Source: Escherichia coli
GTDB taxonomy: Bacteria > Pseudomonadota > Gammaproteobacteria > Enterobacterales > Enterobacteriaceae
Direction: 5' to 3' (one strand)
DNA: 64,000 nucleotides
NCBI RefSeq assembly: GCF_003790525.1
Contig: NZ_CP033635.1
This document shows positions 1,852 to 24,626 of the stretch, piece after piece (the stretch's first letter is position 1; the number at the start of each line of letters is the position of its first letter). Under the pieces are notes generated by a model, which searched no databases, was not told where the DNA came from, and was given only the letters and a program-made list of their open reading frames with translations. The position numbers and the translations under genes are program-made.

Positions 1852-1852
1852 A

Positions 1853-2707: not shown

Positions 2708-2749
2708 CAAATTGGTGCGGGGCAACCCGCACATTTCAGGATGTTAGGA

Positions 2750-12157: not shown

Positions 12158-12322
12158 ATGGCAAAGCCGATCATCACGCTCAATGGCCTAAAAATCGTCA
12201 TTATGTTGGGAATGCTGGTCATTATTCTCTGCGGTATCCGTTTTGCCGCCGAGATCATCGTGCCGTTTATTCTCGCATTATTTATTGCTGTTATATATAA
12301 CTTATTTCGCTTAACTAATTGA
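12158..12322 (+). pseudogene. tqsA: tqsA 5' fragment (AI-2 exporter). The first ~46 codons are native, then 8 island-encoded codons and a stop.
   Basis: [45 protein letters not shown] matches the remembered TqsA N-terminus. The frame leaves tqsA sequence at 12294/12295. Confidence 0.9.
12286..12294 (+). repeat. attL core (TGCTGTTAT)
   Basis: Identical 9-mer at 23720..23728. The two tqsA halves rejoin in frame across it (..[11 protein letters not shown]..). Confidence 0.8.
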
Positions 12323-12365
12323 TTTAATTAAATAATTTGCACTACAAAAAGTGCCAAAAATCGCA

Positions 12366-12423
12366 AATTAACTACACCATTAACTACACCGTTCGGCGCA
12401 CTGTATGAAACAACGTGGAACAA
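12366..12423 (+). repeat. Arm module, left end: AATTAACTACACC ATTAACTACACC, then 19 nt, then ACAACGTGGAACAA
   Basis: The same two-part module recurs in the same orientation at 23567..23624, next to int. Probable arm-type Int/RDF binding sites. Confidence 0.6.
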
Positions 12424-13466
12424 ATAGACACAAGCGGCAGGCTATACCGTTATCATTTTTCAGCTATCCGTCATGAAGCTGGTGGATGATCACGGATAAC
12501 CAGGCATCTACAGCGCCTTAAAAAGCTGAACCCGACAAACATTTCTGCTTATCGGGTCCGATCGCTCTTTCTACTCGTGGCAGATGAGTTTACTAGGAAG
12601 GGGGGAACATTGTATCAGGCTATCCCCTTTCTGTGCTGATTCGGCTGGTGAATGATCTACTTGGGGCACTACACTTTTCGGATAGTGCGGGTATCCGGTT
12701 TTCTGCCTCATCGAATTTTAAGCCTTCTGACGGCCTGTATATCATTTCCTGTGGAGTTGCCGCCCTGATAGCGAATACTGCGGCAGCATGTGATTTACCC
12801 CCCGTTCTGTTGATGTTTGATGTGGCTGGTTGATGTGCTGCCATGTTTTCCGCCAATGGTGGAAAAGCCCACCAGCGCAACGCAGGACGCATAAAACCAT
12901 TGCGATGACTCTGGACGCAAAACCACGTTTAACGATGTTTTGCACTGAACCAGAATACTGTTCGTTTTTGTCTCGATGTCCGTACGTATTACGTCCGCAC
13001 CTAATCCGGCATCATGCCCACCAGCGTAACGCATTTTTTTAATTTCGTGGCTGTGCGTCCACCAGCTACGCCGGAATGGGGTATTCCGTTTCAACGGAAC
13101 AGGTATGACGAACATAATCGCACCTTCTCCCGAAAACGGTGCGACCTGCATCATCGAAATGGTGATTCAGCTACTCGGCGATTTTCACCATTCAGAATCT
13201 GGCGGGTGAGTTATCCAGCTTCCACCAATGGGGGATTCTGGAACAATCAACGGGTTACGCCTTATCAGCAAAAAAGCACATCAACTGTAAAGGAAATCGT
13301 TATGGTTGCTGGTGGGCTGCGTCACCATCATGGTGATGATGCTGTCCAGTCAGCCGGAACGGTTGAACAGGGTGGCTATGGGTCACTCTGTTGTGCGTTA
13401 TTTGCGTGATCCTGGTACGGGGTGACTATCTTTCAGATAGTCGGTTGCCTGGTTACACGAAAAAAT
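12424..13466. other. ORF-poor, Chi-rich segment at the integrase-distal end of the island
   Basis: Only short, mutually overlapping ORFs (131 aa or less) in all six frames. Five Chi octamers: + strand at 12478 and 13308; - strand at 12869, 13018 and 13059. 18-bp direct repeat GCCCACCAGCG(C/T)AACGCA at 12867 and 13016. Confidence 0.6.
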
Positions 13467-13838
13467 TTACTTCCTGCGTTTATCCTGCTTTGTATGCCCG
13501 TGCTGAATGCCCCGCAGTGGATCTTCTTTTTTCAGGTCGATCCCCATGTCCGTTAGTGTTTTTGTGGCGGCGGTTCTTATGGCACAAATCAGGTCTCTTT
13601 CCGGTTCCCGGGTTATGGTTGCCTTCCGGATGCATGCCGTTCGTCGTTCCGTTACATACTGACGCGCTTCATCACTTGCCGCCTGTTTCAGTAACTCACC
13701 CCAGCGATTAGCCGCCCGTCGCCATAAACCTTTCGCTTCCAGTTCTTCCGCTTTGTCATCATGCACCATAAGCATAATCCCATTGATACCTGTTAACTCT
13801 GAATGGTTGGTTTCTGTTCTTTTGATAATTTCCCGCAT
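13467..13838 (-). CDS. PerC-family transcriptional regulator (copy 2)
   Basis: Core MVHDDKAEELEAKGLWRRAANRWGELL is the PerC/Pch signature and parallels the paralog at 17352..17624. The internal ATG at 13769 (100 aa) may be the true start. Confidence 0.7.
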   Translation of the reverse strand: MREIIKRTETNHSELTGINGIMLMVHDDKAEELEAKGLWRRAANRWGELLKQAASDEARQYVTERRTACIRKATITREPERDLICAIRTAATKTLTDMGIDLKKEDPLRGIQHGHTKQDKRRK

Positions 13839-13840
13839 AG

Positions 13841-13872
13841 CTTATTGTATGACAGTACTGTCCCACAATAAG
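13841..13872. promoter_or_regulatory. 32-bp nested palindrome in the divergent perC2 / orf96 control region
   Basis: CTTATTGTatGACAGTACTGTCccACAATAAG. Overlaps the aaggag RBS of the 13884 ORF. Confidence 0.5.
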
Positions 13873-13883
13873 GAGTTGCACGC

Positions 13884-14174
13884 ATGAGAATGACTAGGCA
13901 CAAAAAACAGATTCTTGAACTCTACAAACCTGAGTATCGCGATTGGGTGCGGGTGGAGGCCGGAGATCCGCCTTTTGATGTTCGTGGTGTGACAGTGCTG
14001 CTCTATGGTTCCGAATATCGGCGATATCACATAGAGGCAACACGAAGGACGCTAAACGCTATGGTTCGTGATAAGTTGCTGGAGCGTGTGAAAGTCCGTG
14101 AGCCACGTTTTGATGTGCGTATTGGTGGCGATGGTGCGCATTGCACGGTAATCCGCTATGGCCTGGTAAGGTAA
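13884..14174 (+). CDS. Hypothetical protein, 96 aa (island cargo)
   Basis: ATG preceded by aaggag. No family recognised. Confidence 0.6.
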   Translation: MRMTRHKKQILELYKPEYRDWVRVEAGDPPFDVRGVTVLLYGSEYRRYHIEATRRTLNAMVRDKLLERVKVREPRFDVRIGGDGAHCTVIRYGLVR

Positions 14175-14204
14175 GCCATCGGGTAAATCAGATGATTAAA
14201 TCAC

Positions 14205-14226
14205 CAGAATGTAAATTTACATTCTG
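14205..14226. terminator. Perfect 22-bp palindrome between convergent ORFs
   Basis: cagaatgtaaatttacattctg. No clear T-tract. Confidence 0.4.
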
Positions 14227-14276
14227 CCAGCCACCAGCTACCCTCCTCAAAATTGAGGACCCTTTTTATCAACTGG

Positions 14277-14558
14277 TTACCGCCGCAACCGTTCCGGCTT
14301 CTTCCACTGATAAGTGTTTTTCGCGCTCTCCTGATACATCGCCACGCGTCGACGGTATGCCAGCAACTCTAGTACTCTGATTCGTATGTCGCGCATATCC
14401 ACGCCGTTAAGCTCAATACCATCACGGCGCATTACATCAGCAACAACACGCACATAATTTTCGGCGGTCACGCTGTCCGGCTGCGTGGCCTGTTCGTCAT
14501 GCTGCTGGCTGATTCCGGTAACGCGGCGGATTAATCCCAGTAGTTCGACTTCTGTCAT
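14277..14558 (-). CDS. Hypothetical protein, 93 aa
   Basis: Track ORF 14277..14756 runs through the cos/cosB DNA. The internal ATG at 14558 (MTEVELLGLIRRV...) lies just past cos copy 1. Confidence 0.55.
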   Translation of the reverse strand: MTEVELLGLIRRVTGISQQHDEQATQPDSVTAENYVRVVADVMRRDGIELNGVDMRDIRIRVLELLAYRRRVAMYQESAKNTYQWKKPERLRR

Positions 14559-14591
14559 TGTGCCCCCATCGCTCTGATAGTCTGGTGTCGT

Positions 14592-14656
14592 CGGGTCCTT
14601 TCCGGCATGTGGACCCGTTACGGGGCGTCGACCTCGCGCGTTTTCACTATTTATGA
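14592..14656 (+). other. Lambda-like cosQ-cosN, copy 1; predicted 12-nt cohesive end GGGCGTCGACCT at 14623..14634
   Basis: GGGTCCTTTCCGG..CCGTTACGGGGCGTCGACCTCGCGCGTTTTCACTATTTATGA closely parallels my recollection of lambda cos (..GGGTCCTTTCCGGTGATCCGACAGGTTACGGGGCGGCGACCTCGCGGGTTTTCGCTATTTATGAAAA). Confidence 0.8.
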
Positions 14657-14672
14657 AAATTTTTCGGGATCC

Positions 14673-14769
14673 ATGTCCGGTTTCTCTGCAAGTTAACCAT
14701 ATGAAAAATATAAAAACATGCTTTCCATGAACCGGACATGCGCAAAAAACAGACACTAAAACCGGACAT
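14673..14769 (+). repeat. cosB-like array: three AACCGGACAT sites (14673..14682 inverted, 14730..14739, 14760..14769) around an A/T-rich spacer
   Basis: Position just after cosN, and the one-inverted plus two-direct layout, mimic lambda R3-I1-R2-R1 with a different site sequence. Confidence 0.6.
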
Positions 14770-14837
14770 CGAACCAGTTAACCGAAAGTGTGCACAAATC
14801 ACATTCATTGCTGCGAGTGATTAACAAGTTATCGGCT

Positions 14838-15272
14838 TTACTGTTCTGTATCGGCTGATTGCTCCATGCTGGCACGGCGAACGCTTACGGCATGACGCCA
14901 CCCAGCCAGAAAGCCAGCCATTTTATTTCGTGCCTTGCTCACATCTTCCGGTGAATAGCCGTAAATATGCAAACCTTCATCAAATCGATGTTCTGTTTCT
15001 TCACTGGAGTACTCGTCACGCTCAGATGAAAGCAGCCTCGCAAACATAATTTTTTCCAGCGCACTGGTTTCTACGTGATATCCGATGGTCTGAAGATGGC
15101 TTTTACCTGAATACCAAAGCAATGTATGCCCGATGTGATAACCGCCAGACTTTCCGCGATCCGCATTAAGATACGGCATCCCCTGTTTGGTCCATGCGCG
15201 AATAGTGGTTCTGTTAACCTTGAAATGTTCAGCTATTTCCTGCTGACTTACAAAACAAGCTTTATCAATCAT
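14838..15272 (-). CDS. Nu1-like small terminase / packaging-specificity protein (N-terminal wHTH)
   Basis: VSQQEIAEHFKVNRTTIRAWTKQGMPYL aligns by eye with lambda Nu1 VNKKQLADIFGASIRTIQNWQEQGMPVL. Starts 67 nt downstream of cos copy 2, the lambda cos-Nu1 arrangement. The C-terminal half is not recognisably Nu1-like. Confidence 0.75.
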   Translation of the reverse strand: MIDKACFVSQQEIAEHFKVNRTTIRAWTKQGMPYLNADRGKSGGYHIGHTLLWYSGKSHLQTIGYHVETSALEKIMFARLLSSERDEYSSEETEHRFDEGLHIYGYSPEDVSKARNKMAGFLAGWRHAVSVRRASMEQSADTEQ

Positions 15273-15339
15273 AATGTTACCTTAACTGCATGGTTAAATA
15301 TCAATCAAGTGGTGGTGGTGTCACCTTCACGGAAAAACG

Positions 15340-15404
15340 TCATAAATAGCGAAAACGTGCGAGGTCGACGCCCCGTAACGGGTCCACATGCCGGAAAGGA
15401 CCCG
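15340..15404 (-). other. Lambda-like cosQ-cosN, copy 2 (inverted); cohesive-end sequence at 15362..15373
   Basis: Reverse complement of 14592..14656 with 2 mismatches in 65 nt. No AACCGGACAT sites between it and the Nu1-like start. Confidence 0.8.
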
Positions 15405-15429
15405 CAAAAAAAGCCGGATTTCTCCGGCC
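15405..15429 (-). terminator. Rho-independent terminator after the capsid operon
   Basis: Minus strand reads GCCGGA-gaaa-TCCGGC followed by TTTTTTT. Nearly identical hairpin at 17322..17345. Confidence 0.7.
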
Positions 15430-15502
15430 TTGTCTCAGATGGTTTTCAGTATGCGATAGATGTCGCCGTCATCGCCCTGGTTTGTGCCATCGTTCCCCCT
15501 GC

Positions 15503-15838
15503 TTATCGGGCCAGCGGCTGAACGGATACGCCGGAACCCGCAAAGGCGGCGCATTTTTTCGCATCGGTGTCGACGCTCTCAGGCCAGTTAACGGCGGCAA
15601 TATTGAATATCCCCGTCTTGTAACACTGTGCTGATTTCTGCTTTGACGTGTCCACAGGGTACGAGGTCAGATAAACAGCCTTGCCAGATTCCTTACCATC
15701 CCACGCCTTAAACTCGCCATTGTCTGCCAGCATCAGCGGGGTAAATTCCTGAATAACGCCAGCATCAGCGGCAAAATGTACCAGCGTCGTGGATACCTGT
15801 TGGCTGCCTGAAAATAACTCAATGTATGGAGCGTCCAT
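15503..15838 (-). CDS. Head decoration protein (lambda gpD-like)
   Basis: 111 aa. TPLMLADNGEFKAWDG and AAFAGSGVSV parallel gpD TPLMLDTSSRKLVAWDG and TAFAGTAISIV. Confidence 0.8.
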   Translation of the reverse strand: MDAPYIELFSGSQQVSTTLVHFAADAGVIQEFTPLMLADNGEFKAWDGKESGKAVYLTSYPVDTSKQKSAQCYKTGIFNIAAVNWPESVDTDAKKCAAFAGSGVSVQPLAR

Positions 15839-15849
15839 AGAATCCCCCG

Positions 15850-16905
15850 TTAAGCAATTTTGACGGTAACAAATTTGCGAATATCTGCCGGTACAGGCTG
15901 CGGTGCGCTGTGCGTCTGCACGTACTCAATCGCCGGATCGCCGTCCTCAATCCAGTTTTTCGGGTAGTACATGTTTTGCGTTGCGCCCGTTCTTACCGCT
16001 TCCTGATCCATAATCGCACCATATGCCACCAGCCCTTTATTGTTGGTGTTACCCAGGACCAGCAAATCAGGCTCAAGGAAATATTTTTCGGTCCCGTCGC
16101 TGTCAGTGTATTTGCCGGAATAGACGATAAGGGCCAGATCACCAAGATAGCCTTTAAAGCTCACCACTTCGCCCAGGTTTTTACAGGCCAGCTCGGCGGC
16201 GGATTCTGATCCACGGGAAAGATCGTACAGTTCACGGAATTTTTTAAAGCTGCGTAATGTGCGCCATACCTCACCGCCCATAATCATGACGTTGGCGGGG
16301 CAACCTGCCTGATCAGCATAAAGCTCGATGTCATAGATTGGGTCGTGCATGTCTTTATCCTGCTGGGACCATTTTTTACCACTGGCCTGCTGTATGATGC
16401 AGTTTTCCGGTATTTTCCAGTCGATTTCATAGCGTTCTATGCCTTCGCCCTCAATGATGTTTTTTCCGGTCGTTACCGCATTCACCGCCAGCCATTCCAC
16501 GCGCGCCTTAATGGCGTTTATCTGGCGGCGCATGTTGCCAGTAATCAGGCGCATACGGCGGTAAGTTGGATCGTTAAGCTGTGCCGGATCTTCTCCATCC
16601 ATGCGCATGATGGTCTTTGTTGGATCGATTTCGTGCTTTGGCTTCATGTAGCCTGGTTTAATCGTGCTGGTTTCGTACCCTTTATCGCGCTGGACCTGAC
16701 TACCCACCATAGGAGAACAGAACGCTGACATCGTAACCTCTTCAATGTCCAGGGTGTCCAGCATGATGTTTTGGGTGTTGAAGGTCGCCACGTTCGGGAA
16801 AAACAGCGTGGTAAACAGCGGACTAAATTTATATTCCGAAATATCCCCGCGATTCAGGTACGCGAAAAGCTGGTTAGTTGTAAGTGCCTTTGCTTTGCCT
16901 GTCAT
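15850..16905 (-). CDS. Major capsid protein (lambda gpE family)
   Basis: 351 aa. PGYMKPKHEIDP and YYPKNWIEDGDPA parallel gpE PGYVKPKHEVNP and RYPKNWVTTGDPA. Confidence 0.9.
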   Translation of the reverse strand: MTGKAKALTTNQLFAYLNRGDISEYKFSPLFTTLFFPNVATFNTQNIMLDTLDIEEVTMSAFCSPMVGSQVQRDKGYETSTIKPGYMKPKHEIDPTKTIMRMDGEDPAQLNDPTYRRMRLITGNMRRQINAIKARVEWLAVNAVTTGKNIIEGEGIERYEIDWKIPENCIIQQASGKKWSQQDKDMHDPIYDIELYADQAGCPANVMIMGGEVWRTLRSFKKFRELYDLSRGSESAAELACKNLGEVVSFKGYLGDLALIVYSGKYTDSDGTEKYFLEPDLLVLGNTNNKGLVAYGAIMDQEAVRTGATQNMYYPKNWIEDGDPAIEYVQTHSAPQPVPADIRKFVTVKIA

Positions 16906-17111
16906 TATTCACCTCCGTGAACCTGATTGATACCCAGCGCCGCACGCAAATAGGTGCGCACCTGCCAGCCTGTTGACGGCTCAACCATCGCCAGCGGATC
17001 AAGTCCTGCCGCAATGCCTGCTTTTACATTCTGCTGGTGGCGTTCCTTGAGCGCCTCCACGATGTCGGGGCTTATGTAGACCGTCACCCCGCCTTTTTTC
17101 TCTTCTGCCAT
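16905..17111 (-). CDS. Hypothetical 68-aa protein, first gene of the capsid operon
   Basis: Stop overlaps the MCP start (TAATG). aagaggaa RBS. Confidence 0.6.
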   Translation of the reverse strand: MAEEKKGGVTVYISPDIVEALKERHQQNVKAGIAAGLDPLAMVEPSTGWQVRTYLRAALGINQVHGGE

Positions 17112-17145
17112 AGTCAGAAATTCCTCTTTGACTTAAAAAATCATA

Positions 17146-17195
17146 ACTGGATGTTCATCCAGTCCTGATTATAATCATGATTGCATTTTGCGCAA
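17146..17195 (-). promoter_or_regulatory. Candidate sigma70 promoter of the capsid operon with an overlapping 18-bp palindrome (CTG-N10-CAG)
   Basis: Minus strand: TTGCGC (17195..17190), 16 nt, TATAAT (17173..17168), then ACTGGATGAACATCCAGT (17163..17146). Confidence 0.5.
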
Positions 17196-17321
17196 CAATA
17201 TTGAGTTACGTTGCAAATTATGAAATGATTATCCCGATCATGTGTGTCAGTTCACCATAAAAAACCTCGTATACAAAAGCCCCATAAGCCCCCTGTGACC
17301 TTATCGGGCTTTTTTTAGGCG

Positions 17322-17345
17322 TAAAAAAGCCGGATTGCTCCGGCT
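17322..17345 (-). terminator. Rho-independent terminator after perC copy 1
   Basis: Minus strand reads AGCCGGA-gcaa-TCCGGCT followed by TTTTTT. A plus-strand hairpin with a T-run sits back-to-back at 17286..17317. Confidence 0.7.
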
Positions 17346-17351
17346 GTGTGC

Positions 17352-17624
17352 TCACTTCTGCGGGTAGTTGCGCCATATTGCTTTGCCAATACCAGCTATC
17401 CCCATTTGTTTTTCAGTGCGATTAACTGACCTTTTCAGAGCGCCTAAATCATCCGGCGGCTCCGGTGGCCTCTGTGCCTTACGGATACATTCCGCGCGAC
17501 GCATTGCCACCTGTTCGCGCTCCTTGTCTGTCTCCACCAGCCTCATAACTTCACCCCATCGCGCCGCCGCCCTCCGGTAAAAGCCTTTTGCCTCGAGTTC
17601 CTCCGCTATGCGGTCATGTACCAT
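17352..17624 (-). CDS. PerC-family transcriptional regulator (copy 1)
   Basis: 90 aa from MVHDRIAEELEAKGFYRRAAARWGEVM. Start is 11 nt after the ssb stop with a ggggg RBS. Track ORF 17352..17744 overlaps ssb. Confidence 0.75.
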   Translation of the reverse strand: MVHDRIAEELEAKGFYRRAAARWGEVMRLVETDKEREQVAMRRAECIRKAQRPPEPPDDLGALKRSVNRTEKQMGIAGIGKAIWRNYPQK

Positions 17625-17634
17625 CGTCACCCCC

Positions 17635-18045
17635 TCAGAACGGAATATCATCACCGTAAGGGTCATCGCCTCCCGCTGGTGGCTGATTACCCTGTGTGCC
17701 TGTGGTTTTGCGTCTGTTCCCGCCAGGACGTGCCGCACGGGCACTGATTACGCTGTCTGCAATAACCTGCCAGCCCTGCCGCGTTTCCCCGTTCTGTCCG
17801 GTCCACTGGCTGACCTGCATCGTGCCGGATACGCTGGCAACGTCGCCTTTTTGATGTTTAGCCAGAAAGTCGGCCTGTTTGCCAAATGCGATGACCGATA
17901 ACCATAACGTCGCCTGTCCGTCCTGTGCCTGGCCGCATGGTAAAGATACCGCCATACGCGCCAGCGTCATCGGTGTACCCTTACTGGTCTGTTTTACCTG
18001 CGGGTCGTCCACCAGCCGCCCGTAAGCTGCTATCTGTGCTGTCAT
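17635..18045 (-). CDS. ssb: Single-stranded DNA-binding protein
   Basis: 136 aa with an OB-fold N-terminus, a Gly/Pro/Gln linker and the acidic tail DDIPF. Confidence 0.85.
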   Translation of the reverse strand: MTAQIAAYGRLVDDPQVKQTSKGTPMTLARMAVSLPCGQAQDGQATLWLSVIAFGKQADFLAKHQKGDVASVSGTMQVSQWTGQNGETRQGWQVIADSVISARAARPGGNRRKTTGTQGNQPPAGGDDPYGDDIPF

Positions 18046-18284
18046 GCTGTCTGCTCTCCGGTTTTAACGTTGATGGTTGTTACCTGTTCTGCTTCGGCAA
18101 TATCCCGCTCTGTCAGCGTGGCAAAGTTTGCCGCCGTCGTTGTCATGAATGCGCTTATCAGTTCGGGATGTGCTTTCGCGTATCCTTCCCCTGTGTTGCG
18201 GTCGATGATTTTTATCGCCACCCTCAGCCAGTGCTCTGTAAGGTCAATGGCGCGGTGATCTGTCTTTTTGTGGCTTACCTTCAT
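18042..18284 (-). CDS. Hypothetical protein, 80 aa
   Basis: ATGA overlap with the ssb start. No family recognised. Confidence 0.6.
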   Translation of the reverse strand: MKVSHKKTDHRAIDLTEHWLRVAIKIIDRNTGEGYAKAHPELISAFMTTTAANFATLTERDIAEAEQVTTINVKTGEQTA

Positions 18285-18287
18285 GAT

Positions 18288-18656
18288 TTACTCCAGAGTA
18301 CCGCTATTGCTGCTGTCGTTAACCGGATACCAGGCAAATACCATCGATTCACCACAGTGAACAAACTTCTTATCCGGCAGATAAAGGCACTCGCACATTC
18401 CCTCATCAGGACTATGCGGACTCATGCCCAGCTCACTGGTCAGCACGGGTAAGATTTCGCGGCAGGTGTTCCCCGCACCGAAATAATCAACCTCACAAAG
18501 CGCCCATGCAGCAATCGGGCTGTACCATTCCGTGCCGTCGTCGTCTTTGAACTTAGCCCACCAGCCAGGAAGGGCAGTTGATATGCTCAGTGTTTCAATT
18601 TCAGTGTTCATAAATTTACCTTCGGTATTTTGTCCTGCTGTTCGATTTTTATTCAT
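18288..18656 (-). CDS. Hypothetical protein, 122 aa (alternative start at 18611)
   Basis: First gene downstream of the iteron region. No family recognised. Confidence 0.6.
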   Translation of the reverse strand: MNKNRTAGQNTEGKFMNTEIETLSISTALPGWWAKFKDDDGTEWYSPIAAWALCEVDYFGAGNTCREILPVLTSELGMSPHSPDEGMCECLYLPDKKFVHCGESMVFAWYPVNDSSNSGTLE

Positions 18657-18660
18657 TGCT

Positions 18661-18860
18661 CACCATCTCTCACTTTTACTACTCACTTTTTAAAGCGTCT
18701 CGCTTCGTCTCACTTGAGATTTTTGTGTTTTGTATGTGCATGTTTCATAAGTGTTTTTTCACTGCTCACTTTTGAGCATGTATACAGGTGAGAAAGTGAG
18801 TAATTGTGTTAATATTTTGTAAAAACCTCACCATTACTCACTTTTACTACTCACTTTTTA
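18661..18860. repeat. Putative origin of replication: CTCACTT iterons flanking an A/T-rich core
   Basis: CTCACTT at 18669, 18682, 18709, 18765, 18837 and 18850, with an inverted copy at 18794. 32-bp direct repeat at 18661..18692 and 18829..18860. Immediately 3' of the initiator gene. Confidence 0.7.
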
Positions 18861-20264
18861 CAGTGGTCCTACATCATCACCATCAATGTAAATCACGGCG
18901 TCTTTTTCCAGTTTGGCTAACCATCGCCGCATATTTTTCACGTCATACCCAAGCCGTTTCATGTCATCACGTAACAGCGGGATCGTGCACTTGTCGCCGT
19001 TCTGTGTGCGTGAACGGATGCACCCCCATAGCGCGGTATGGTTTTCCGTCTTGTTGCCTGCCTCCTCGATGCGCTCCAGTTCAGCAGGGGCGCGGGGAAC
19101 GTCAATCACCACCATGGACACAATTTCTTCGCCATCTGTATCGGTGAACACCTCCACGCTTTTAAGGTCGTATGCACTCTCTTTTGGCTCCTCTGCGTCC
19201 TTCATCTTCGTACACGCCGCAACCAGTGCTGTAACGTCTGAATTTTCCCTGCTGATTCGGTACTCTGCATCAAGCGCGGCACGGAATGCACTGGAACCAC
19301 GCGCCCCCTTTGTTTCATCCTTGCCGGAATGGTGAACCACCAGCACCGTGGCCCCTGTGGCCTGCTTTATCGCGTCACACCCCTGGATAAATGCGCCCAT
19401 ATCACGGGAATCATTTTCATCATTCCCACCAAAGCAACGGGCCAGCGTGTCGATCACAATCAGCCGCACATTTTCGCCCGTTCTGCTCTTAACAAGTCCG
19501 GCAGTCCTGATAACCTGCTCCACATAGTCAGGCGATGCAGGGAAAACAGGCGCGTTAATGATGCACAAATCTGTAACCACCTTGTCGTGGGTTATCTCCC
19601 ACGCCTTAACGCGGCGTTTTACGCCCATGCTGCCTTCACCAGCGATATAGATAACCGCACCCTTACTTACCCTGCGGCCTCCCCATGCCATACCTGTGGC
19701 AACATGGCACGACCAGGAAATGGCGAGGAACGATTTATAAGAACCGCTGGCCCCGTAGGTGCTGCATAATGACTCAGCCGGAATAAGCCCCTTAATGACG
19801 TAGCTTTGCTGCGCATCGAATCCCTCAGAACCCCATGAGATGGGAAGTGTGATTTTTCGCTTTCCGCCATTCATGACCAGGCTTTCCCCTCTCTCCCATG
19901 TTTCCCGTAGTCGTGGTAGCTGGTCGCTCCAGTCCTCCAGCAGTTCGAAATTTTCAGAAAGTAGCCGCGCCTCCTGGACTCCGGCGATCGCCAGTTTTGT
20001 GGCAATGGTCAGCATCTGCATATCGTCCAGGTTTCCGGCGCGTATGACCTTTACCCTGTATCGTCCTTCATCAACAATCTGTAAGTTGTCCAGTTCGCTT
20101 AACTGATAACGGCCCAGATAAACCGGAGGGATGGGATCGCCTGCTTTTTTGGCCTGTGCAATCATGTAATGTTCTGCAAAGGAGTGAGCATTATCACCCG
20201 CAAAAATAACCGCCTCAGTGTGTTTATCTTTCGGTAACAGTTTTACGTTCGGTGCAAGTTTCAT
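18858..20264 (-). CDS. Replication initiator, RecA/DnaB-like (AAA_25-type) ATPase with a C-terminal wHTH; Pri-Rep analogue
   Basis: 468 aa. Walker A GASGSYKS, Walker B LIVIDTLARCF, VLVVHHSGKDETKGARGSSA. Confidence 0.8.
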   Translation of the reverse strand: MKLAPNVKLLPKDKHTEAVIFAGDNAHSFAEHYMIAQAKKAGDPIPPVYLGRYQLSELDNLQIVDEGRYRVKVIRAGNLDDMQMLTIATKLAIAGVQEARLLSENFELLEDWSDQLPRLRETWERGESLVMNGGKRKITLPISWGSEGFDAQQSYVIKGLIPAESLCSTYGASGSYKSFLAISWSCHVATGMAWGGRRVSKGAVIYIAGEGSMGVKRRVKAWEITHDKVVTDLCIINAPVFPASPDYVEQVIRTAGLVKSRTGENVRLIVIDTLARCFGGNDENDSRDMGAFIQGCDAIKQATGATVLVVHHSGKDETKGARGSSAFRAALDAEYRISRENSDVTALVAACTKMKDAEEPKESAYDLKSVEVFTDTDGEEIVSMVVIDVPRAPAELERIEEAGNKTENHTALWGCIRSRTQNGDKCTIPLLRDDMKRLGYDVKNMRRWLAKLEKDAVIYIDGDDVGPL

Positions 20265-20548
20265 TTCTTACCCCCTGCGACCAGCATTTCACGGATTTTG
20301 CGGATATAACTTGCAGCACGTTTCTGATTAACGGCTTTACGATGGCCCACCAGCGTGAAATCACGCCGGAACTGATAAACAGGCATAACGCAGTCATATT
20401 CGTAGCCTTCACGGCGGTAAGTGATGCGACGTTCCTCCACGCCCTTAATCATTACCGTGCCGCCGTAGTTATCACGGAAAATATCGCCGGGACGGATTTC
20501 AGGACGAGCGGGGCCGCTGGCATTAACGCCAGAATTTTTATTTTTCAT
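20261..20548 (-). CDS. Small conserved phage/satellite protein (DUF4222-like by recollection)
   Basis: 95 aa. ATGA overlap with the initiator start. Confidence 0.6.
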   Translation of the reverse strand: MKNKNSGVNASGPARPEIRPGDIFRDNYGGTVMIKGVEERRITYRREGYEYDCVMPVYQFRRDFTLVGHRKAVNQKRAASYIRKIREMLVAGGKK

Positions 20549-20553
20549 GTTTT

Positions 20554-20781
20554 TTATTCTCCGGTGTGCTGTTCTTTATATCTGTCGTGAATTGCCATCA
20601 CTGTATTTAATTCATTAATAACAGCCGTTAATAGCGTACGCACGGCAGAAAACATCATTGAATCAGATTCATCGCCACTTTCCTGCACATCAATTAAATT
20701 AAGTAGTAATGCGTCCATTTCCTTTGCGCGGATTAATGCCTTTTCACAATGAAAAATAACACCAAAGGGTATTTTATTCAT
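20554..20781 (-). CDS. Hypothetical protein, 75 aa
   Basis: ATG at 20781 overlaps the icd-like stop (ATGAATAA). Track ORF starts 14 codons earlier. Confidence 0.55.
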   Translation of the reverse strand: MNKIPFGVIFHCEKALIRAKEMDALLLNLIDVQESGDESDSMMFSAVRTLLTAVINELNTVMAIHDRYKEQHTGE

Positions 20782-20971
20782 GACTCCCCTCCTGACGGAT
20801 ACGGGCGGCGAATACAGCGACACAACCGGACGGGCAACGGTTACGCGCTTCGCGTTCCGTCCAGGCGGTCACGTGGATAATTTGAGATTCTCCGGCACTC
20901 AGTGCCAGAAAACGCCACACAAAGGCGGTTTGTGTGTGCGCTAGTCGTGGGGTATGCTGTGTTCCAGCCAT
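20774..20971 (-). CDS. Icd-like (P4 host cell-division inhibitor-like) protein, 65 aa
   Basis: MAGTQHTPRLAHTQTAFVWRFLALSAGESQIIHVTAWTEREARNRC..VFAARIRQEG fits the remembered Icd-like pattern. aggag RBS. It forms the C-terminal part of the implausible 308-aa track ORF. Confidence 0.65.
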   Translation of the reverse strand: MAGTQHTPRLAHTQTAFVWRFLALSAGESQIIHVTAWTEREARNRCPSGCVAVFAARIRQEGSHE

Positions 20972-21056
20972 AATCGTTACTCCTGTTAACGGTTTGGTTA
21001 GACGCCCTGCATGTGTTACAGCACTGCGGGGCGTTGTCTTTTTAACGGCTTTCGTG

Positions 21057-21104
21057 ATAGGGTGTACACCTATCAAGCAAAAACATAACGCTATAGGTGT
21101 ACAC
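21057..21104. promoter_or_regulatory. Operator-like sites sharing TAGGTGTACAC in the divergent icd / RHH control region
   Basis: ATAGGGTGTACACCTAT (21057..21073, near-palindrome) and ATAGGTGTACAC (21093..21104, abutting the RHH ATG). The minus-strand TTGACA hexamer overlaps the RHH start. Confidence 0.5.
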
Positions 21105-21299
21105 ATGTCAACAGTTATTAAGCGAGATAAAAAACCAAAGGGAACAGGAAAAGCCCCCCCATTCCATATGCGAATAGCTCCAGAACTGAAAGAGCAGTTT
21201 GATAATGAGGCCAGCAATGATGGGGTAAGCCTAGCCAACTGGCTTAAAGAGTTGGGGCGCGCCGAACTAAAGCGACGCGGCATTGAACCTAAAGGCTGA
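21105..21299 (+). CDS. Ribbon-helix-helix (Arc/CopG/HicB-antitoxin-like) DNA-binding protein, 64 aa
   Basis: FHMRIAPELKEQFDNEASNDGVSLANWLKELGRAELKR is a typical RHH fold signature. Opposite strand to the rest of the island. Confidence 0.7.
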   Translation: MSTVIKRDKKPKGTGKAPPFHMRIAPELKEQFDNEASNDGVSLANWLKELGRAELKRRGIEPKG

Positions 21300-21302
21300 T
21301 GT

Positions 21303-21428
21303 ATGACTGAAAAGCAGACCGATAACAAACTTTCTCTACCAGAGAATAAACCAGCAGGCTTCTTACCAAGAAAAATCCTTGATGAGATCAAACGCCGCCA
21401 GCGCCGCAAGGCCAAAGAGCAGGAATAG
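21303..21428 (+). CDS. 41-aa basic micro-protein, co-oriented with the RHH gene
   Basis: ATG 4 nt after the RHH stop. MTEKQTDNKLSLPENKPAGFLPRKILDEIKRRQRRKAKEQE. Followed by a terminator. Confidence 0.4.
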   Translation: MTEKQTDNKLSLPENKPAGFLPRKILDEIKRRQRRKAKEQE

Positions 21429-21459
21429 CCCACCAGCAAGCCAGCACACTGATCACATT

Positions 21460-21488
21460 GGCCACCGTGACAGGTGGCCTTTTCTTTG
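21460..21488 (+). terminator. Rho-independent terminator of the RHH operon
   Basis: GGCCACC-gtgaca-GGTGGCC followed by TTTTCTTT. Confidence 0.7.
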
Positions 21489-21540
21489 CCCGTTATCCGG
21501 CAATTGTGGCGCTTCGCCACACGGTTGATATAATTCCCCT

Positions 21541-21611
21541 GCTCAGATTCATTTTTTGCGCGGCAGGTAAATTGTTCAGAAAGGCGGCTCCTTATCGGGG
21601 CCGCTTTTTTT
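21541..21611 (+). ncRNA. Candidate ~70-nt small RNA, antisense to the alpA-to-icd leader
   Basis: Extended -10 TGaTATAAT at 21526..21534. Hairpin plus T7 terminator at 21580..21611. No ORF. Confidence 0.3.
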
Positions 21612-21752
21612 ATGTCTGAAAAACCGCGATTTTGTTGTTTTTCAGTTTCACCAGGCCGAACGAAGCCCCGCCCATGTTCGGGCGTATATCCAGTCTTCAT
21701 GGTTAAATCTCTGTATTAGTGGATGGGTGGCGGCTGTGTGCCGCCAGTCTTT

Positions 21753-21941
21753 TTAGTGAACTGCCTCGCAGCTTTCCTTCCATGCCAGAACTTCGGATAA
21801 AGACCAGCCAACGGAACGACCGCCCAGCTTACGCCGTGATGGGAATTGTCCGGCCTTTTCCAGGCGGTAGCGGCATGAGCGGCTAAGGCCTGTTAGCTTT
21901 TCGCATTCTTTTTCACGTATAAAGCGATCAGTGCTTAACAC
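21753..21941 (-). CDS. alpA: AlpA-family (MerR-like HTH) phage regulatory / excision-control protein
   Basis: 62 aa, GTG start. REKECEKLTGLSRSCRYRLEKAGQFPSRRKLGGRSVGWSLSEVLAW is the AlpA signature. Confidence 0.8.
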   Translation of the reverse strand: MLSTDRFIREKECEKLTGLSRSCRYRLEKAGQFPSRRKLGGRSVGWSLSEVLAWKESCEAVH

Positions 21942-22100
21942 TATTGCCCCCTTTCGTTTCTTAAAGAGTTATTTCGTGTTCTATTGCGTTGGGATGTGTC
22001 TGATTGTGTCAGGGTGATTCAGAGTTGGCAAATGTTGGTGGCGGGTATTTTACAGAAACGGGGTGATTTTAATAAAAATCATTTTAATTCAGTATTATGC

Positions 22101-22133
22101 AAAGGCATAAAATCTCGTTTTATGCCTTTTTTC
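22101..22133 (+). terminator. Strong hairpin plus T-run in the int-alpA spacer
   Basis: AAAGGCATAAAA-tctcg-TTTTATGCCTTT followed by TTT. Confidence 0.55.
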
Positions 22134-22233
22134 TCACTATTTAAAGCGTTATTCGCTAATGTATAAAAAACCAGTTGAGCATTAAAAATCAGCAACTTAT
22201 AAATCTGTATACTTTTTGACCTCTTGTTCGTGG

Positions 22234-22267
22234 TTGTTTCACGTTGTTGTGTATTGTTGCACGTTGT
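22234..22267 (-). repeat. Two more ACAACGTGNAACAA motifs (22234..22247 and 22254..22267), 20 bp apart
   Basis: Same 14-mer as in both arm modules (12410 and 23611), here in the opposite orientation just downstream of int. Confidence 0.5.
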
Positions 22268-22315
22268 ATCTGTGCACTTATCCAGTATGCGCATACTGAA
22301 AAAACACGAAAAAAA

Positions 22316-23566
22316 TTATTTTCTTCTGGCTACTGGTAGCGTGGTTACGTTTTCATGTGCTCCCGCCAGTATCTCCAACCGCTCCACCCACATATCCAGC
22401 GCATTGCGTTTCGCATCCAGATAACGGGAATGATTATAAACTCGCTGCATTCCTGGCATCTGGTGGCCTGTAAGCTGCTCCACGACGTGAGGATCCACGC
22501 CTAAATCGTTCAGCATCGTTGTAAAGGTGCGCCGGATGTCATGCAGTGACCATTGAGGGTGTTTTAGCCTCCTGTGCGCTAATCTGCCGTACTGCGATAC
22601 GCTGGCCTCCTGTTTCACTTCCCCCAGTAATAAGCCCGTGTGCCTGTTCTGCTCCACCAGCCGCGTGACGAACGGCAGGATCGCTTCCGGTATGGGCCGG
22701 AATATTGCGACCTTCGTTTTGCTGTGCTCCTTCGGAACGGTCCAGAGCATTTCCGTGAAATCCCACTCCCCGATCTCCGATAACCTCAGTTCTACCGTCC
22801 TGGCTCCGAAGACAATCAGGAGGCGGATTAGTGCGACGTAGTAAGGGGAAAATATTTTTTTGTCCAGTGCCTGCAATAATTCGCCCAGTTCTTTGGTGCT
22901 TAAGACACGTTCGCTTATATCCGGTTTTTTCCCAACGTCCGCCACGTTCAGATCGTCCAGAACGTTGCTGATTGCATAGCGCCGCCTCCGGCAAAACTTA
23001 AGCGCCTGTTTGCACGCCTGTAGCACGAATCCGGCAGTAACAGGCGTTCGCTTTGCCACCCGATCAAAACAGGCCAGCCAGTGCCGTAGCTCGCATTTAT
23101 CCAGCGGCATAGCACCAATGTGCTGTATTACGTGATTATTAAGTCGCCTTTTCAGGGCGATATAATCCACGCGGTTTTCCTTTACGTAAGACTCAAGCCA
23201 GTAGGTGAGCGCATCTCCAACCGTTACAGGCTTTAACGCTTCCTGCATGGTGTAATTCATCTCATGACGTGGATTTTTCCCCTCAGCCAGCCATGCGCGA
23301 CACTGGGCGGCTTTTTCCCTGGCTGATTTCAGGCTCAGATCAGGATAATTTCCCAGCTTAATACGTTCCGGTCGTGTCTCTCTTCCCGTTCCGGCCCTGT
23401 AAGTGAAATACCAGGTTAAAAGGCCGCTGGTTGAATGCCTGACGCTCAGATTTCCACCGTCATTAAGAAAGGCTGTTTTTTGGGCGGGTGTGCCGTTGAT
23501 TTTCCTTAGCTGTGTATCGCTCAGCTTGTTAAGTGCTCTGGTCATAATTTTGAATCCGGTCATCAC
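22316..23566 (-). CDS. int: Tyrosine recombinase, P4-type integrase (N-terminal arm-binding domain plus catalytic domain)
   Basis: 416 aa. LSDTQLRK N-terminus, catalytic HDIRRTF...GHQ..MQRVYNHSRY. Alternative start at 23545. Confidence 0.9.
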   Translation of the reverse strand: MMTGFKIMTRALNKLSDTQLRKINGTPAQKTAFLNDGGNLSVRHSTSGLLTWYFTYRAGTGRETRPERIKLGNYPDLSLKSAREKAAQCRAWLAEGKNPRHEMNYTMQEALKPVTVGDALTYWLESYVKENRVDYIALKRRLNNHVIQHIGAMPLDKCELRHWLACFDRVAKRTPVTAGFVLQACKQALKFCRRRRYAISNVLDDLNVADVGKKPDISERVLSTKELGELLQALDKKIFSPYYVALIRLLIVFGARTVELRLSEIGEWDFTEMLWTVPKEHSKTKVAIFRPIPEAILPFVTRLVEQNRHTGLLLGEVKQEASVSQYGRLAHRRLKHPQWSLHDIRRTFTTMLNDLGVDPHVVEQLTGHQMPGMQRVYNHSRYLDAKRNALDMWVERLEILAGAHENVTTLPVARRK

Positions 23567-23624
23567 AATTAACTACACCATTAACTACACCGATCGTTGC
23601 ACAAAGGGCTACAACGTGAAACAA
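23567..23624 (+). repeat. Arm module, right end (AATTAACTACACCATTAACTACACC, then 19 nt, then ACAACGTGAAACAA)
   Basis: Begins 1 nt upstream of the int start codon. Direct repeat of 12366..12423. Confidence 0.6.
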
Positions 23625-23719
23625 GCTGGAACAAGAAAAATCACAAATTTGTTTATAATCAAAAACATAATGCACAACCTGAAACATTATGAAACGGCAA
23701 AAAACACTAATTGATAAAG

Positions 23720-23728
23720 TGCTGTTAT
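23720..23728 (+). repeat. attR core (TGCTGTTAT)
   Basis: Identical to 12286..12294. tqsA sequence resumes here. Confidence 0.8.
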
Positions 23729-24626
23729 TCTTAACCCGCTGGTGCAACACATGGTCCGCTGGCGAGTGCCGCGTGTACTGGCGGTGTCGATTTTGATGAC
23801 CATCATCGTGATGGCGATGGTGTTGCTGTTAGCTTATCTGGGTTCCGCGCTCAACGAGTTGACGCGGACGTTACCGCAATATCGCAACTCTATTATGACG
23901 CCGCTGCAAGCGATTGAACCGTTGTTGCAACGCGTAGGGATTGATGTCTCAGTTGACCAACTGGCGCATTACATTGATCCGAACGCGGCAATGACGTTGC
24001 TCACCAACTTATTGACGCAGTTATCTAATGCCATGTCATCAATCTTTTTATTGCTGCTGACGGTGCTGTTTATGTTGCTCGAAGTGCCACAATTGCCCGG
24101 AAAATTTCAGCAAATGATGGTGCGTCCGGTTGAAGGGATGGCGGCGATTCAGCGTGCGATTGACAGTGTGTCTCATTATCTGGTGCTGAAAACAGCCATC
24201 AGCATCATCACCGGCCTGGTCGCCTGGGCGATGCTCGCCGCACTCGATGTTCGCTTCGCTTTTGTCTGGGGATTGCTGGCCTTTGCGCTTAATTACATCC
24301 CTAATATTGGTTCAGTTCTCGCGGCAATCCCCCCTATCGCTCAGGTACTGGTGTTTAATGGCTTCTACGAAGCGTTGCTGGTGCTGGCGGGATATCTGCT
24401 AATTAATCTGGTCTTCGGCAATATTCTGGAGCCGCGCATCATGGGACGTGGGCTGGGGCTTTCCACATTGGTGGTATTTTTGTCGTTGATTTTTTGGGGA
24501 TGGTTGTTAGGACCGGTGGGTATGCTGCTTTCCGTGCCGTTAACAATTATTGTCAAAATTGCGCTTGAACAAACAACGGGAGGTCAAAGCATCGCCGTTC
24601 TGTTAAGCGATCTCAACAAAGAGTGA
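23720..24626 (+). pseudogene. tqsA: tqsA 3' fragment (codons ~44 to the end). A 294-aa ORF from GTG 23742 stays open.
   Basis: ..[26 protein letters not shown].. continues the remembered TqsA sequence. In-frame TAA at 23715. Confidence 0.9.

Follow-up and report, generated by a model that had tools for sequence, protein, structure and literature searches.

The best-studied family of phage-inducible chromosomal islands (PICIs) in E. coli is represented by EcCICFT073, the Gram-negative prototype from strain CFT073, in which the capsid and head-decoration genes of the c1498-c1500 region were named, and knock-outs made, in 2018 (Fillol-Salom 2018, PMC6092414). Deletion of c1499 or c1500 changed neither resident-helper transfer nor lambda interference, islands carrying c1499::cat were transferred by phi80 at up to 1e6/ml, and the capsid genes proved dispensable for transfer with lambda, phi80 and CFT073 phage 4; the EcCICFT073 DNA packaged with lambda was entirely of phage size (PMC6092414). 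When the EcCICFT073 genes downstream of ori were expressed singly, c1503, encoding RppA (redirecting phage packaging protein), was the only one to inhibit lambda (PMC6739421). These negative results come only from islands bearing c1501::tetA or c1499::cat, in which the operon was already disrupted, but they still show that the capsid genes are not required with the helpers used.

Capsid genes are widespread among such satellites, being found in 21 of 29 reference Gram-negative PICIs (PMC10111431), and the PICI detection model of SatelliteFinder counts capsid morphogenesis among its five core components (PMC10085698). The capsid-forming PICIs (cf-PICIs), such as EcCIEDL933, encode their own major capsid protein (MCP) within an HK97-type module that includes portal, protease, head-tail connectors, HNH, TerS and TerL. 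Their left half (int, alpA and the replication genes) is related to classical PICIs (10.1101/2022.09.08.507074), and the capsid genes of the two groups show an almost perfect phylogenetic separation (PMC10085698). Two further satellites carry MCP homologues: PmCI172, which yields small capsids (PMC6092414), and the cos-packaged SaPIbov5, which lacks portal and protease and whose MCP homologue, Ccm, redirects capsid assembly (PMC5052747).

An EcCICFT073-type island in tqsA

The window analysed here, 64,000 nucleotides of an E. coli genome, contains an 11,434-bp satellite (12294..23727, minus strand) of the EcCICFT073 type, integrated in tqsA between mdtJ and pntB. The two halves of tqsA (12158-12322 and 23742-24626; AI-2E_transport) flank the island, and the crossover core, GCTGTTAT, is present twice, at 12286-12293 and 23720-23727. 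A pair of 26-nt repeats at 12366 and 23567 was considered as att cores and dropped, as tqsA breaks at GCTGTTAT; these repeats are more likely to be arm-type sites. E. coli CM2 and PKF11 carry near-identical islands at this position, and in E. coli 042 the match also spans both flanks of the query.

The island has the core features by which PICIs are recognised. A tyrosine integrase (22316..23566, minus strand; Pfam Arm-DNA-bind_3 and Phage_integrase), 92% identical to that of EcCICFT073, lies at one end, and adjoining it is an AlpA-family regulator (21753..21941, minus strand; Pfam Phage_AlpA, E=5e-18) with 95% identity to the EcCICFT073 protein. Replication is represented by a RepA-type replicative helicase (18858..20264, minus strand; Pfam AAA_25, E=8.5e-43) and, from Pfam matches, an SSB. 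Direct repeats of 37 nt just downstream of the helicase gene (18659-18695 and 18827-18863) are probably the iterons of an origin, so that the island would possess its own replicase module with an adjacent putative ori. A Phage_cap_E-type capsid morphogenesis gene (15850-16905), an orthologue of RppA and two cosN-like sites are also present, and the island falls within the ~10-15 kb expected of a PICI, without tail, lysis, portal or TerL genes.

The scanned island ORFs gave no match to portal, protease, TerL, tail or lysis families in Pfam and PHROGs, as the initial annotation had held for portal, protease and TerL. Head maturation protease, head-tail adaptor and connector are likewise absent from these ORFs, as are the HNH and TerS of the HK97-type module; the resemblance to cf-PICIs lies in a satellite-encoded MCP and the related left half. 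No P4-like satellite is indicated either, given that Sid, Psu, Delta and alpha primase have no Pfam or PHROG match among the island ORFs and that the replicase is of the RepA type; no Rfam family was found in the island.

Together, these observations make it almost certain that the three genes considered below make up the late operon for capsid morphogenesis in a PICI of the EcCICFT073 type that has inserted into tqsA. The satellite context proposed initially is therefore borne out by an 11.4-kb integrase/AlpA/replicase island; the accompanying suggestion that such a module lies outside the classical PICI repertoire is not, given the published frequency of capsid genes (PMC10111431), their place in SatelliteFinder (PMC10085698), and the presence of c1498-c1499-c1500 in the prototype at 93-96% amino-acid identity. 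The operon arrangement is already known, is canonical for this family, and in itself adds nothing new. Helper-dependent induction, packaging and high-frequency transfer have been demonstrated only for the relative EcCICFT073 (PMC6092414, PMC6739421).

The two islands share gene order and gene lengths (68, 351, 111 and 144 aa), a 1-nt stop/start overlap between the first two genes, the terminator sequence and the inverted-repeat layout of cos1-rppA-cos2. They differ in that the window's island lacks c1501, a 137-aa Nu3-like gene, carries a RepA/AAA_25 helicase gene where CFT073 has a primase gene, has a second PerC gene, shows a G-to-T change in both cosN copies, and lies in tqsA rather than beside roxA/phoQ.

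The capsid operon and its signals

The operon runs on the minus strand from a promoter and leader through a 68-aa gene, the MCP gene and the decoration (Dec) gene to a terminator, followed by cos1-rppA-cos2. All three ORFs are present at the coordinates first assigned to them, each preceded by a Shine-Dalgarno sequence. The MCP (15850..16905, 351 aa) is of the lambda gpE type and matches Pfam PF03864 (Phage_cap_E; E=2.1e-49, 168.8 bits against a cut-off of 22.9), with residues 26-349 aligned to positions 14-328 of the 329-position profile. A full-length alignment with lambda gpE (9-351 to 5-341, 6 gaps) gives 43% identity; identity to its orthologue c1499, the crystal structure of which is PDB 3BQW (E=4.8e-229), is 95%. 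Dec (15503..15838, 111 aa), the orthologue of c1500, is of the lambda gpD type and matches PF02924 (HDPD; E=4e-17, 62.9 bits, cut-off 29.1); it shares 37% identity with lambda gpD and 96% with c1500, and among solved structures its closest relative is 1TD0, the decoration protein (SHP) of phage 21. The gpE-like and gpD-like identities originally proposed thus hold in Pfam, PHROG and PDB matches as well as in the lambda alignments. The c1498-c1503 gene numbering used here was confirmed against the supplement of PMC6092414 and AAN79967.

The MCP, Dec and c1501 are homologous to the E, D and Nu3 region of lambda and phage 21, and their nearest phage relatives are phage 21-like. In contrast to the C/Nu3, D, E order of the phages, the satellite order is 68-aa gene, E, D and Nu3-like gene; furthermore, the satellite operon has no protease domain, identity is only 36-47%, and the 68-aa gene has no phage counterpart. 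Across 375 phage records, identity to the MCP itself does not exceed 47%.

The first gene of the operon (16905..17111, minus strand) encodes a 68-aa protein orthologous to c1498 (93% identity) and belonging to phrog_3255 (E=8.7e-36). As noted in the initial annotation, its TAA stop overlaps the ATG of the MCP gene (GAATAATGACAGG at 16910-16898), an arrangement from which the two genes are predicted to be translationally coupled. The family comprises only 31 clusters, from E. coli, Salmonella, Edwardsiella and metagenome contigs, and tblastn gave no match in 50,697 phage records. There was no match in NCBIfam, no meaningful match in a PDB profile search and no significant pairwise similarity to lambda W, FI and C or to c1501. 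An AlphaFold2 model (pLDDT 76) has a beta-alpha-alpha arrangement, for which Foldseek returned no PDB fold below E=5; in Pfam, one sub-threshold BrnA/ribbon-helix-helix match (E=0.15) was obtained, and a role as a ribbon-helix-helix regulator is only a guess. The protein had been put forward as a scaffold candidate, a suggestion weakened by its lack of a phage homologue or recognisable fold and by the location of the family's scaffold-like gene, the 137-aa c1501, downstream of the decoration gene.

A probable operon promoter, judged from its sequence, lies with the leader at 17135..17195 on the minus strand (-35 TTGCGC at 17195-17190; -10 TATAAT at 17173-17168). The leader contains a hairpin followed by a U-run (17165-17135; -22.1 kcal/mol, z = -2.66), and the region is kept in E. 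coli, Salmonella and Edwardsiella relatives although their proteins are only ~60% identical. A search of phage genomes with the promoter/leader motif gave chance-level matches only; a link to helper Q antitermination was also considered and found no support. At the other end, an intrinsic terminator (15406..15429, minus strand; GGCCGGA-GAAA-TCCGGCT followed by a T7 run) was not reported by a simple terminator scan, but was confirmed by folding (-19.1 kcal/mol, z = -2.7), and is identical in sequence to that following c1501 in EcCICFT073. The operon does therefore have its own terminator, as first described, but not directly after the decoration gene, a 14-codon stub lying between the two.

Beyond the terminator, a 78-nt inverted repeat provides two cos sites as its arms. 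The cosQ/cosN-like cos1 (15327..15404, minus strand) lies upstream of rppA and contains a cosN, GGGCGTCGACCT at 15373-15362, with a single mismatch to that of lambda; the inverted second copy, cos2 (14592..14669, plus strand), has its cosN at 14623-14634. An equivalent of cos1 has been described in EcCICFT073 (PMC6739421), as has cos2 (PMC6092414, PMC6739421), and the inverted pair is kept in the CFT073, Nissle and ETEC1732 islands. Between them, the RppA gene (14838..15272, minus strand) encodes an orthologue of c1503, 96% identical to the 144-aa EcCICFT073 protein and with weak TerS/Nu1 HTH matches.

Deletion of c1501, distribution and selection

A fourth gene, c1501 (137 aa; supplement of PMC6092414), belongs to the operon in most E. 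coli relatives, and the window's island retains only a 14-codon stub of it (15446..15490, minus strand). Alignment with EcCICFT073 shows that a ~358-bp deletion, bounded by two copies of the 9-bp repeat ACGATGGCA, removed the gene and shifted the frame, the junction falling just after ATGGCA, around 15485. The closest MCP alleles (99%), found on three IMG/VR contigs, retain the 137-aa gene, while another IMG/VR contig carries the same deletion; Salmonella and Edwardsiella relatives are also without a c1501-like gene. The window's island is thus a natural c1501-deleted form, and close relatives that retain the gene allow comparison.

By homology, c1501 resembles the C-terminal, Nu3 scaffold domain found in the head proteases of lambdoid phages. 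It aligns with positions 495-567 of the 583-position head maturation protease profile phrog_53 (E=1e-8), and in tblastn, regions annotated as Nu3/scaffold in phage 21-like phages matched it at 36-39% across 83 aa (E=2e-5 to 4e-4). In blastp, the CFT073 (p137) and ETEC (p141) proteins match residues 371-491 of the 495 in a helper gpC homologue (E about 2e-7). Direct BLASTP against lambda gpC/Nu3 was not significant; the homology came to light only with the PHROG profile and with phage 21-like or Edwardsiella prophage proteins. Loss of this gene may have impaired the capsid module of the island, although the Salmonella and Edwardsiella relatives that do without it speak against this. The recognition of c1501 as a Nu3-like fourth operon gene goes beyond the earlier reading of the locus, as does the observation that the published negative results rest on islands in which the operon was not intact.

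Of 5,426 complete E. coli genomes, 610 (about 11%, or one in nine) contain 80% or more of the module. dN/dS is 0.08-0.13 for the MCP, 0.18-0.30 for Dec and, measured against the window's gene, 0.11-0.20 for the 68-aa gene, values indicative of purifying selection on these genes. Every relative examined carries intact ORFs. The triad of 68-aa, MCP and Dec genes, with its promoter and leader, is kept in Salmonella and Edwardsiella satellites, whereas the 68-aa gene is missing from another satellite lineage that carries MCP and Dec. The MCP of an Edwardsiella satellite is only 48% identical to that of the prophage in which the satellite is embedded, and the satellite MCPs appear from their sequences to form a satellite-specific clade, distant from phage MCPs. 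A search of genome contigs with the MCP for related loci yielded no confirmed locus, the relatives described here having come from other searches.

Possible roles of the capsid genes

What emerges is a puzzle: purifying selection acts on a conserved, satellite-specific MCP/Dec pair, usually accompanied by a scaffold homologue, for which no phenotype has been reported. The most reasonable mechanism is still mixed assembly, in which the capsid genes build shells on the portal, protease and terminase of the helper, a reading offered tentatively and somewhat short of probable. The satellite would contribute coevolved shell and cement proteins of its own, usually with a scaffold as well, and in the late phase of the helper these would assemble into procapsids on the helper portal. 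These would be matured by the helper protease, filled by helper TerS/TerL redirected by RppA to cos1, and completed with helper tails. Whether the shells were pure or mixed, and full-size (holding four 11.4-kb genomes, 45.7 kb) or small, would probably depend on the helper. As the cognate Dec and the scaffold are under purifying selection, the satellite MCP is expected to end in expanded, DNA-filled shells, rather than acting as a mere poison.

Among described systems, SaPIbov5 Ccm is the closest mechanistic precedent for a satellite MCP working with helper head proteins, the other precedent being PmCI172. The likeness has limits: Ccm is only ~19% identical to the helper MCP and has a shortened delta domain, whereas the window's MCP is a full-length gpE homologue with its own Dec and, in relatives, a separate scaffold homologue. 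Moreover, Ccm gives small capsids and interference, neither of which has been seen for c1499. The published knock-out, phi80 transfer, packaged-DNA and single-expression results on EcCICFT073 (PMC6092414, PMC6739421) run counter to shell-building.

A stronger form of mixed assembly is that c1498-c1501 constitute a working half head module, producing satellite-specific and possibly small shells on a stolen portal, protease and terminase when the right lambdoid helper, possibly a phage 21-like one, is present. This seems somewhat unlikely on present evidence, and could have been missed so far because the published EcCICFT073 constructs carried c1501::tetA or c1499::cat. If true, it would represent a strategy intermediate between classical PICIs and cf-PICIs, with the window's island as a natural scaffold-less mutant; should the proteins prove to be part of transducing particles, a further class of satellites would have to be placed between "capsid stealers" and "capsid formers".

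The initial annotation took small capsids to be the likely product, with the 68-aa protein as a candidate size determinant or scaffold; in such a scheme, satellite MCP and Dec on helper portal, protease and terminase would give T=3 or T=4 heads for one or two 11.4-kb genomes. Small capsids are indeed made with the MCP homologues of PmCI172 and SaPIbov5 (PMC6092414, PMC5052747), and volume scaling would give ~13.6 kb for T=3 and ~21 kb for T=4, set against 11.4 or 22.9 kb of island DNA. Such redirection is nevertheless unlikely here, since the EcCICFT073 DNA packaged with lambda was phage-sized, four island copies (45.7 kb) fit a full lambda head, and deletion of c1499 or c1500 was without effect on transfer or lambda interference, with the caveat that these constructs were operon-disrupted. 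Nor does the 68-aa protein suit the proposed role: it is without scaffold homology, phage homologue or fold match, its gene is absent from another MCP-Dec lineage, and the part of scaffold-like gene in this family belongs to c1501, lost from this island.

Interference and defence functions are common among PICIs, and the dispensability of the capsid genes for transfer would suit a model in which satellite MCP and Dec enter the assembling capsids of certain phages, helpers or not, and poison them, while the satellite's own particles need neither protein. Ccm offers a parallel, acting specifically on the helper MCP, in which escape mutants map (PMC5052747). Lambda interference was, however, not relieved by deletion of c1499 or c1500, late genes of EcCICFT073 other than c1503 did not inhibit lambda when expressed singly, and a cognate Dec and scaffold homologue under purifying selection are hard to explain for a mere poison, which leaves this model improbable.

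A back-up role, discussed in PMC10111431, would have the satellite genes compensate for disrupted or delayed helper capsid expression, as the late genes of helpers (E, B, A, C) are frequent integration sites of these satellites; relatives of this island are embedded in the portal gene (Edwardsiella), gpA (Salmonella) and, at two loci, gene E. This is very unlikely, as the window's island and EcCICFT073 lie in chromosomal genes and not in helpers, the satellite MCP is so distant (~48%) from that of its own helper, and where a satellite interrupts a portal or terminase gene, the genes it carries are those for MCP and Dec, not the interrupted one. Least probable of all is a functionless remnant of captured helper late genes heading for loss, a reading that fits the missing c1499 phenotype (PMC6092414), the capture-and-loss cycle proposed in PMC10111431 and the loss of c1501 in this island, but not the intact ORFs with dN/dS of 0.08-0.3, the presence of the module in ~11% of complete E. 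coli genomes, the distinctness of a clade far from any phage MCP, or a promoter and leader kept across genera.

A capsid operon in an EcCICFT073-type island

The capsid genes lie within an 11,434-bp element that interrupts tqsA, between mdtJ and pntB, in the E. coli chromosome, with the crossover core GCTGTTAT present twice (12286-12293 and 23720-23727). Along the minus strand it carries first a tyrosine integrase and then AlpA, followed by small genes (Icd-like and HicB-like according to the RefSeq annotation of a near-identical island), a DUF4222 gene, a RepA-type helicase with repeats downstream, and SSB. Next come a PerC-family gene, the three operon genes, a cos site and a 144-aa HTH protein, and the island ends with an inverted second cos site, a 93-aa gene, a plus-strand 96-aa ORF and a second PerC gene. 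[quoted passage not shown]

A doubled motif, ATTAACTACACC, is found in direct orientation close to both island ends (12366-12391 and 23567-23592), and its copies are better explained as integrase arm-type sites than as the crossover core. Two 37-nt direct repeats (18659-18695 and 18827-18863; 92% identical), directly downstream of the RepA-type helicase gene, are probably ori iterons, their position matching that of described Gram-negative PICI replication origins. A 308-aa ORF (20774-21700, minus strand) overlaps several short RefSeq genes of the near-identical island (Icd-like, and HicB-like on the opposite strand) and is probably not a real gene.

The major capsid protein (MCP) gene (15850-16905, minus strand) encodes 351 aa that cover almost the entire Pfam Phage_cap_E profile (E=2.1e-49), align end-to-end with lambda gpE (43% identity, six gaps), and match PDB 3BQW, a "putative capsid protein of prophage" (E=4.8e-229). 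The decoration gene (15503-15838, minus strand; 111 aa) belongs to the Pfam lambda head decoration family (E=4e-17), with 37% identity to gpD and the phage 21 decoration protein as its closest solved structure. The gpE-like and gpD-like identities first assigned to these ORFs therefore stand, as does the coupling of a 68-aa gene (16905-17111, minus strand), whose TAA overlaps the ATG of the MCP gene; each of the three genes is preceded by a Shine-Dalgarno sequence. Among the island ORFs, Pfam and PHROG scans gave no portal, protease, large terminase, tail or lysis genes, in agreement with a satellite lacking portal and protease.

The CFT073 chromosome around its island, EcCICFT073, has the same gene run, with lengths of 68, 351, 111 and later 144 and 93 aa, and in both islands a one-base overlap joins the first two operon genes. 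Amino acid identity between the two is 93% for the 68-aa protein (AAN79967 in EcCICFT073), 95% for the MCP, 96% for the decoration protein, 96% for the 144-aa protein, 95% for AlpA and 92% for the integrase. The PerC-family genes differ in number, as the region of EcCICFT073 retrieved has one annotated and the window island two (13467-13838 and 17352-17744, both minus strand; Pfam E=7.6e-23 and 4.5e-39). In the published gene list (Fillol-Salom et al. 2018 supplement, PMC6092414) c1498 encodes 68 aa, c1499 a 351-aa capsid protein, c1501 137 aa and c1502 60 aa. The 144-aa c1503 is RppA, by which the helper's TerS is redirected to cos1 of the island (PMC6739421). The two cos sites of the window island, inverted relative to each other, correspond to the published cos1 and cos2.

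Of 29 reference Gram-negative PICIs, 21 have a capsid gene (PMC10111431). The SatelliteFinder PICI model counts "Capsid morphogenesis" among its five core components, and E. coli accounts for 97% of the elements that have all of them (PMC10085698). At least 80% of the module is present in 610 of the 5,426 E. coli genomes of a complete-genome collection. Given this literature and this frequency, the arrangement is already known and common, and the novelty relative to classical PICIs that had been claimed for it does not hold.

A fourth, Nu3-like gene and its loss

In EcCICFT073 the 137-aa c1501 starts 12 nt after the decoration gene, and the terminator follows only after c1501, whereas the window has lost ~358 bp lying between two copies of ACGATGGCA. 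What remains is the same start codon and a frame-shifted 14-codon stub (15490-15446, minus strand). The operon does end in a terminator, as initially annotated, with a GC hairpin and T7 run (15429-15406, minus strand; -19.1 kcal/mol), but the stub separates it from the decoration gene.

The four-gene layout, spanning ~2.15 kb, was found in 23 of 23 records sampled from the 582 at 90-95% identity to the module, with only 12 records at 95% or above. A fourth gene, coding for 141 aa, also occurs in the divergent E. coli lineage ETEC1732 (66% nucleotide identity), and the 137-aa gene is retained in three IMG/VR contigs (L017, L024 and L025; MCP 99% identical), while another, L027, has the same deletion as the window. 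Because the four-gene layout is widespread and retained next to 99%-identical MCPs, the loss of c1501 is recent.

The 137-aa protein is a member of phrog_1999, and its residues 46-119 match positions 495-567 of 583, at the C-terminal end of a head maturation protease family (E=1e-8). In tblastn residues 49-131 fall on annotated Nu3/scaffolding regions of phage 21-like phages (36-39% identity, E=2e-5 to 4e-4). In an Edwardsiella prophage, residues 371-491 of the 495-aa lambda gpC homologue align with both the CFT073 and the ETEC version (E ~2e-7), and direct comparison with lambda's own gpC/Nu3 was not significant. We conclude that the protein is homologous to the Nu3-type scaffold domain. The phage 21-like group is also the source of the nearest phage MCPs (46-47% identity), and since MCP, Nu3-like protein and decoration protein all point in the direction of phage 21, the operon may go back to a single capture, by an ancestor, of a lambdoid head segment. 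Rearrangement would have followed, as the satellite order is 68-aa gene, E, D, Nu3-like, whereas the phage order is C/Nu3, D, E. Without c1501 the window island's module may be weaker; the three-gene form may nevertheless still work, using the helper's own scaffold, as Salmonella and Edwardsiella relatives are also without c1501.

Maintenance of the operon and related satellites

Every ORF examined was intact, and pairwise dN/dS was 0.08-0.13 for the MCP, 0.18-0.30 for the decoration protein, 0.25-0.46 for c1501, and 0.11-0.20 for the 68-aa protein against the window's gene, with other pairs of the latter reaching 0.76. Satellite MCPs of E. coli, Salmonella and Edwardsiella share 62-75% identity with one another and at most 47% with any phage MCP in the collection; the Edwardsiella satellite MCP and its counterpart in the prophage hosting it share 48%. 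The ~130 nt upstream of the 68-aa gene are more conserved across these satellites than the proteins, and include (within 17135-17195, minus strand) a promoter-like TTGCGC-N16-TATAAT overlapping a palindrome, directly followed by a leader hairpin and U-run that precede the ribosome-binding site of the 68-aa gene. The 17135-17195 stretch had no match in phage genomes. A functionless remnant, one of the outcomes initially named as refutation, is made unlikely by the intact ORFs, low dN/dS, distinct MCP lineage and conserved upstream region; the operon consists of working genes of a satellite-specific lineage.

The 68-aa protein has 31 relatives (clusters) in a large protein collection, many from metagenome contigs; wherever a source organism is named, it is E. 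coli, Salmonella or Edwardsiella. It contains a conserved GLDPL motif, and its overlap with the MCP gene is kept in the Salmonella and Edwardsiella satellites. No tblastn match was found among 50,697 phage records, and no noteworthy match in Pfam, NCBIfam or PDB; the AlphaFold2 model (pLDDT 76), in which a short beta hairpin precedes two helices, gave no fold match. With neither phage homologue, family nor fold, its proposed role as a scaffold or size-determination factor finds no support.

The 68-aa/capsid/decoration triad occurs inside the portal gene of a helper prophage in Edwardsiella tarda (L004; CM130058.1, 649-11120), where the D and E genes of the helper itself are 3 kb away, and inside helper prophage gpA in a Salmonella contig (L006; 1284-10219). 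Both satellites are helper-embedded PICIs. Contig L024 (IMGVR_UViG_3300008491_000088, 1499-4611), with its 99%-identical MCP and intact 137-aa gene, has cos after the capsid operon and then lambda-like Nu1 and A genes in place of rppA, and may be a helper-embedded or recombinant element. A second satellite lineage in IMG/VR (L010, L013 and L026; MCP 55-56%, integrase 46% identical) carries the capsid-decoration pair; the upstream 68-aa gene is missing in L013, the one contig examined. Lambda-like late genes adjoin the satellite in L010 and L026, which suggests insertion in capsid gene E.

Possible roles for the satellite capsid proteins

Deletion of c1499 or c1500, in a c1501::tetA background, left resident-helper transfer and the lambda plaque block unchanged; a c1499::cat island was transferred at ~1e3/ml with lambda and 1e6/ml with phi80, and lambda-packaged EcCICFT073 DNA was all phage-sized (PMC6092414). 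When genes downstream of ori were expressed singly, only c1503 inhibited lambda (PMC6739421). On this evidence the capsid genes are unlikely to be essential for transfer or lambda interference, or to redirect capsid size with lambda. The small capsids initially expected are thus contrary to the sole published data, which come from operon-disrupted islands: the tetA marker lies inside the Nu3-like c1501 and cat replaces c1499 (PMC6092414, Table 1), so that the four-gene operon was already disrupted in the islands used. Our literature search found no later paper on the function of PICI capsid genes, and residual interest lies in this function, the Nu3-like c1501, the disrupted operons of the published tests and the natural deletion variant.

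A gpD-type decoration protein binds expanded shells only, as established for lambda, and a scaffold acts in procapsid assembly only. A satellite with the RppA/cos packaging hijack also keeps a coevolved MCP, a decoration protein and, in most cases, a Nu3-like scaffold, and because selection keeps the latter two alongside the MCP, the satellite MCP could end up in real shells. These would be nucleated by the helper portal, matured by the helper protease and filled by the RppA-redirected helper terminase, the reading we favour but hold tentatively, at somewhat less than even chances. The shells might be mixed or pure, and of full or small size: four island copies amount to 45.7 kb and fit a lambda head, and by simple volume scaling a T=3 shell could also take one copy and a T=4 shell two. 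Alternatively, the satellite proteins may poison the capsids of particular phages, or the genes may serve as a back-up copy for a helper-embedded lifestyle.

The cosN copies (14623-14634, plus strand, and 15362-15373, minus strand) lie in an inverted repeat (14592-14669 and 15327-15404), and both carry the same G-to-T change, reading GGGCGTCGACCT where lambda and EcCICFT073 have GGGCGGCGACCT. In an IMG/VR scan the GGGCGTCGACCT variant was present in four lambda-like phage contigs (L014, L019, L020 and L022) and two phage 21-like contigs (L011 and L015), which are candidate natural helpers.
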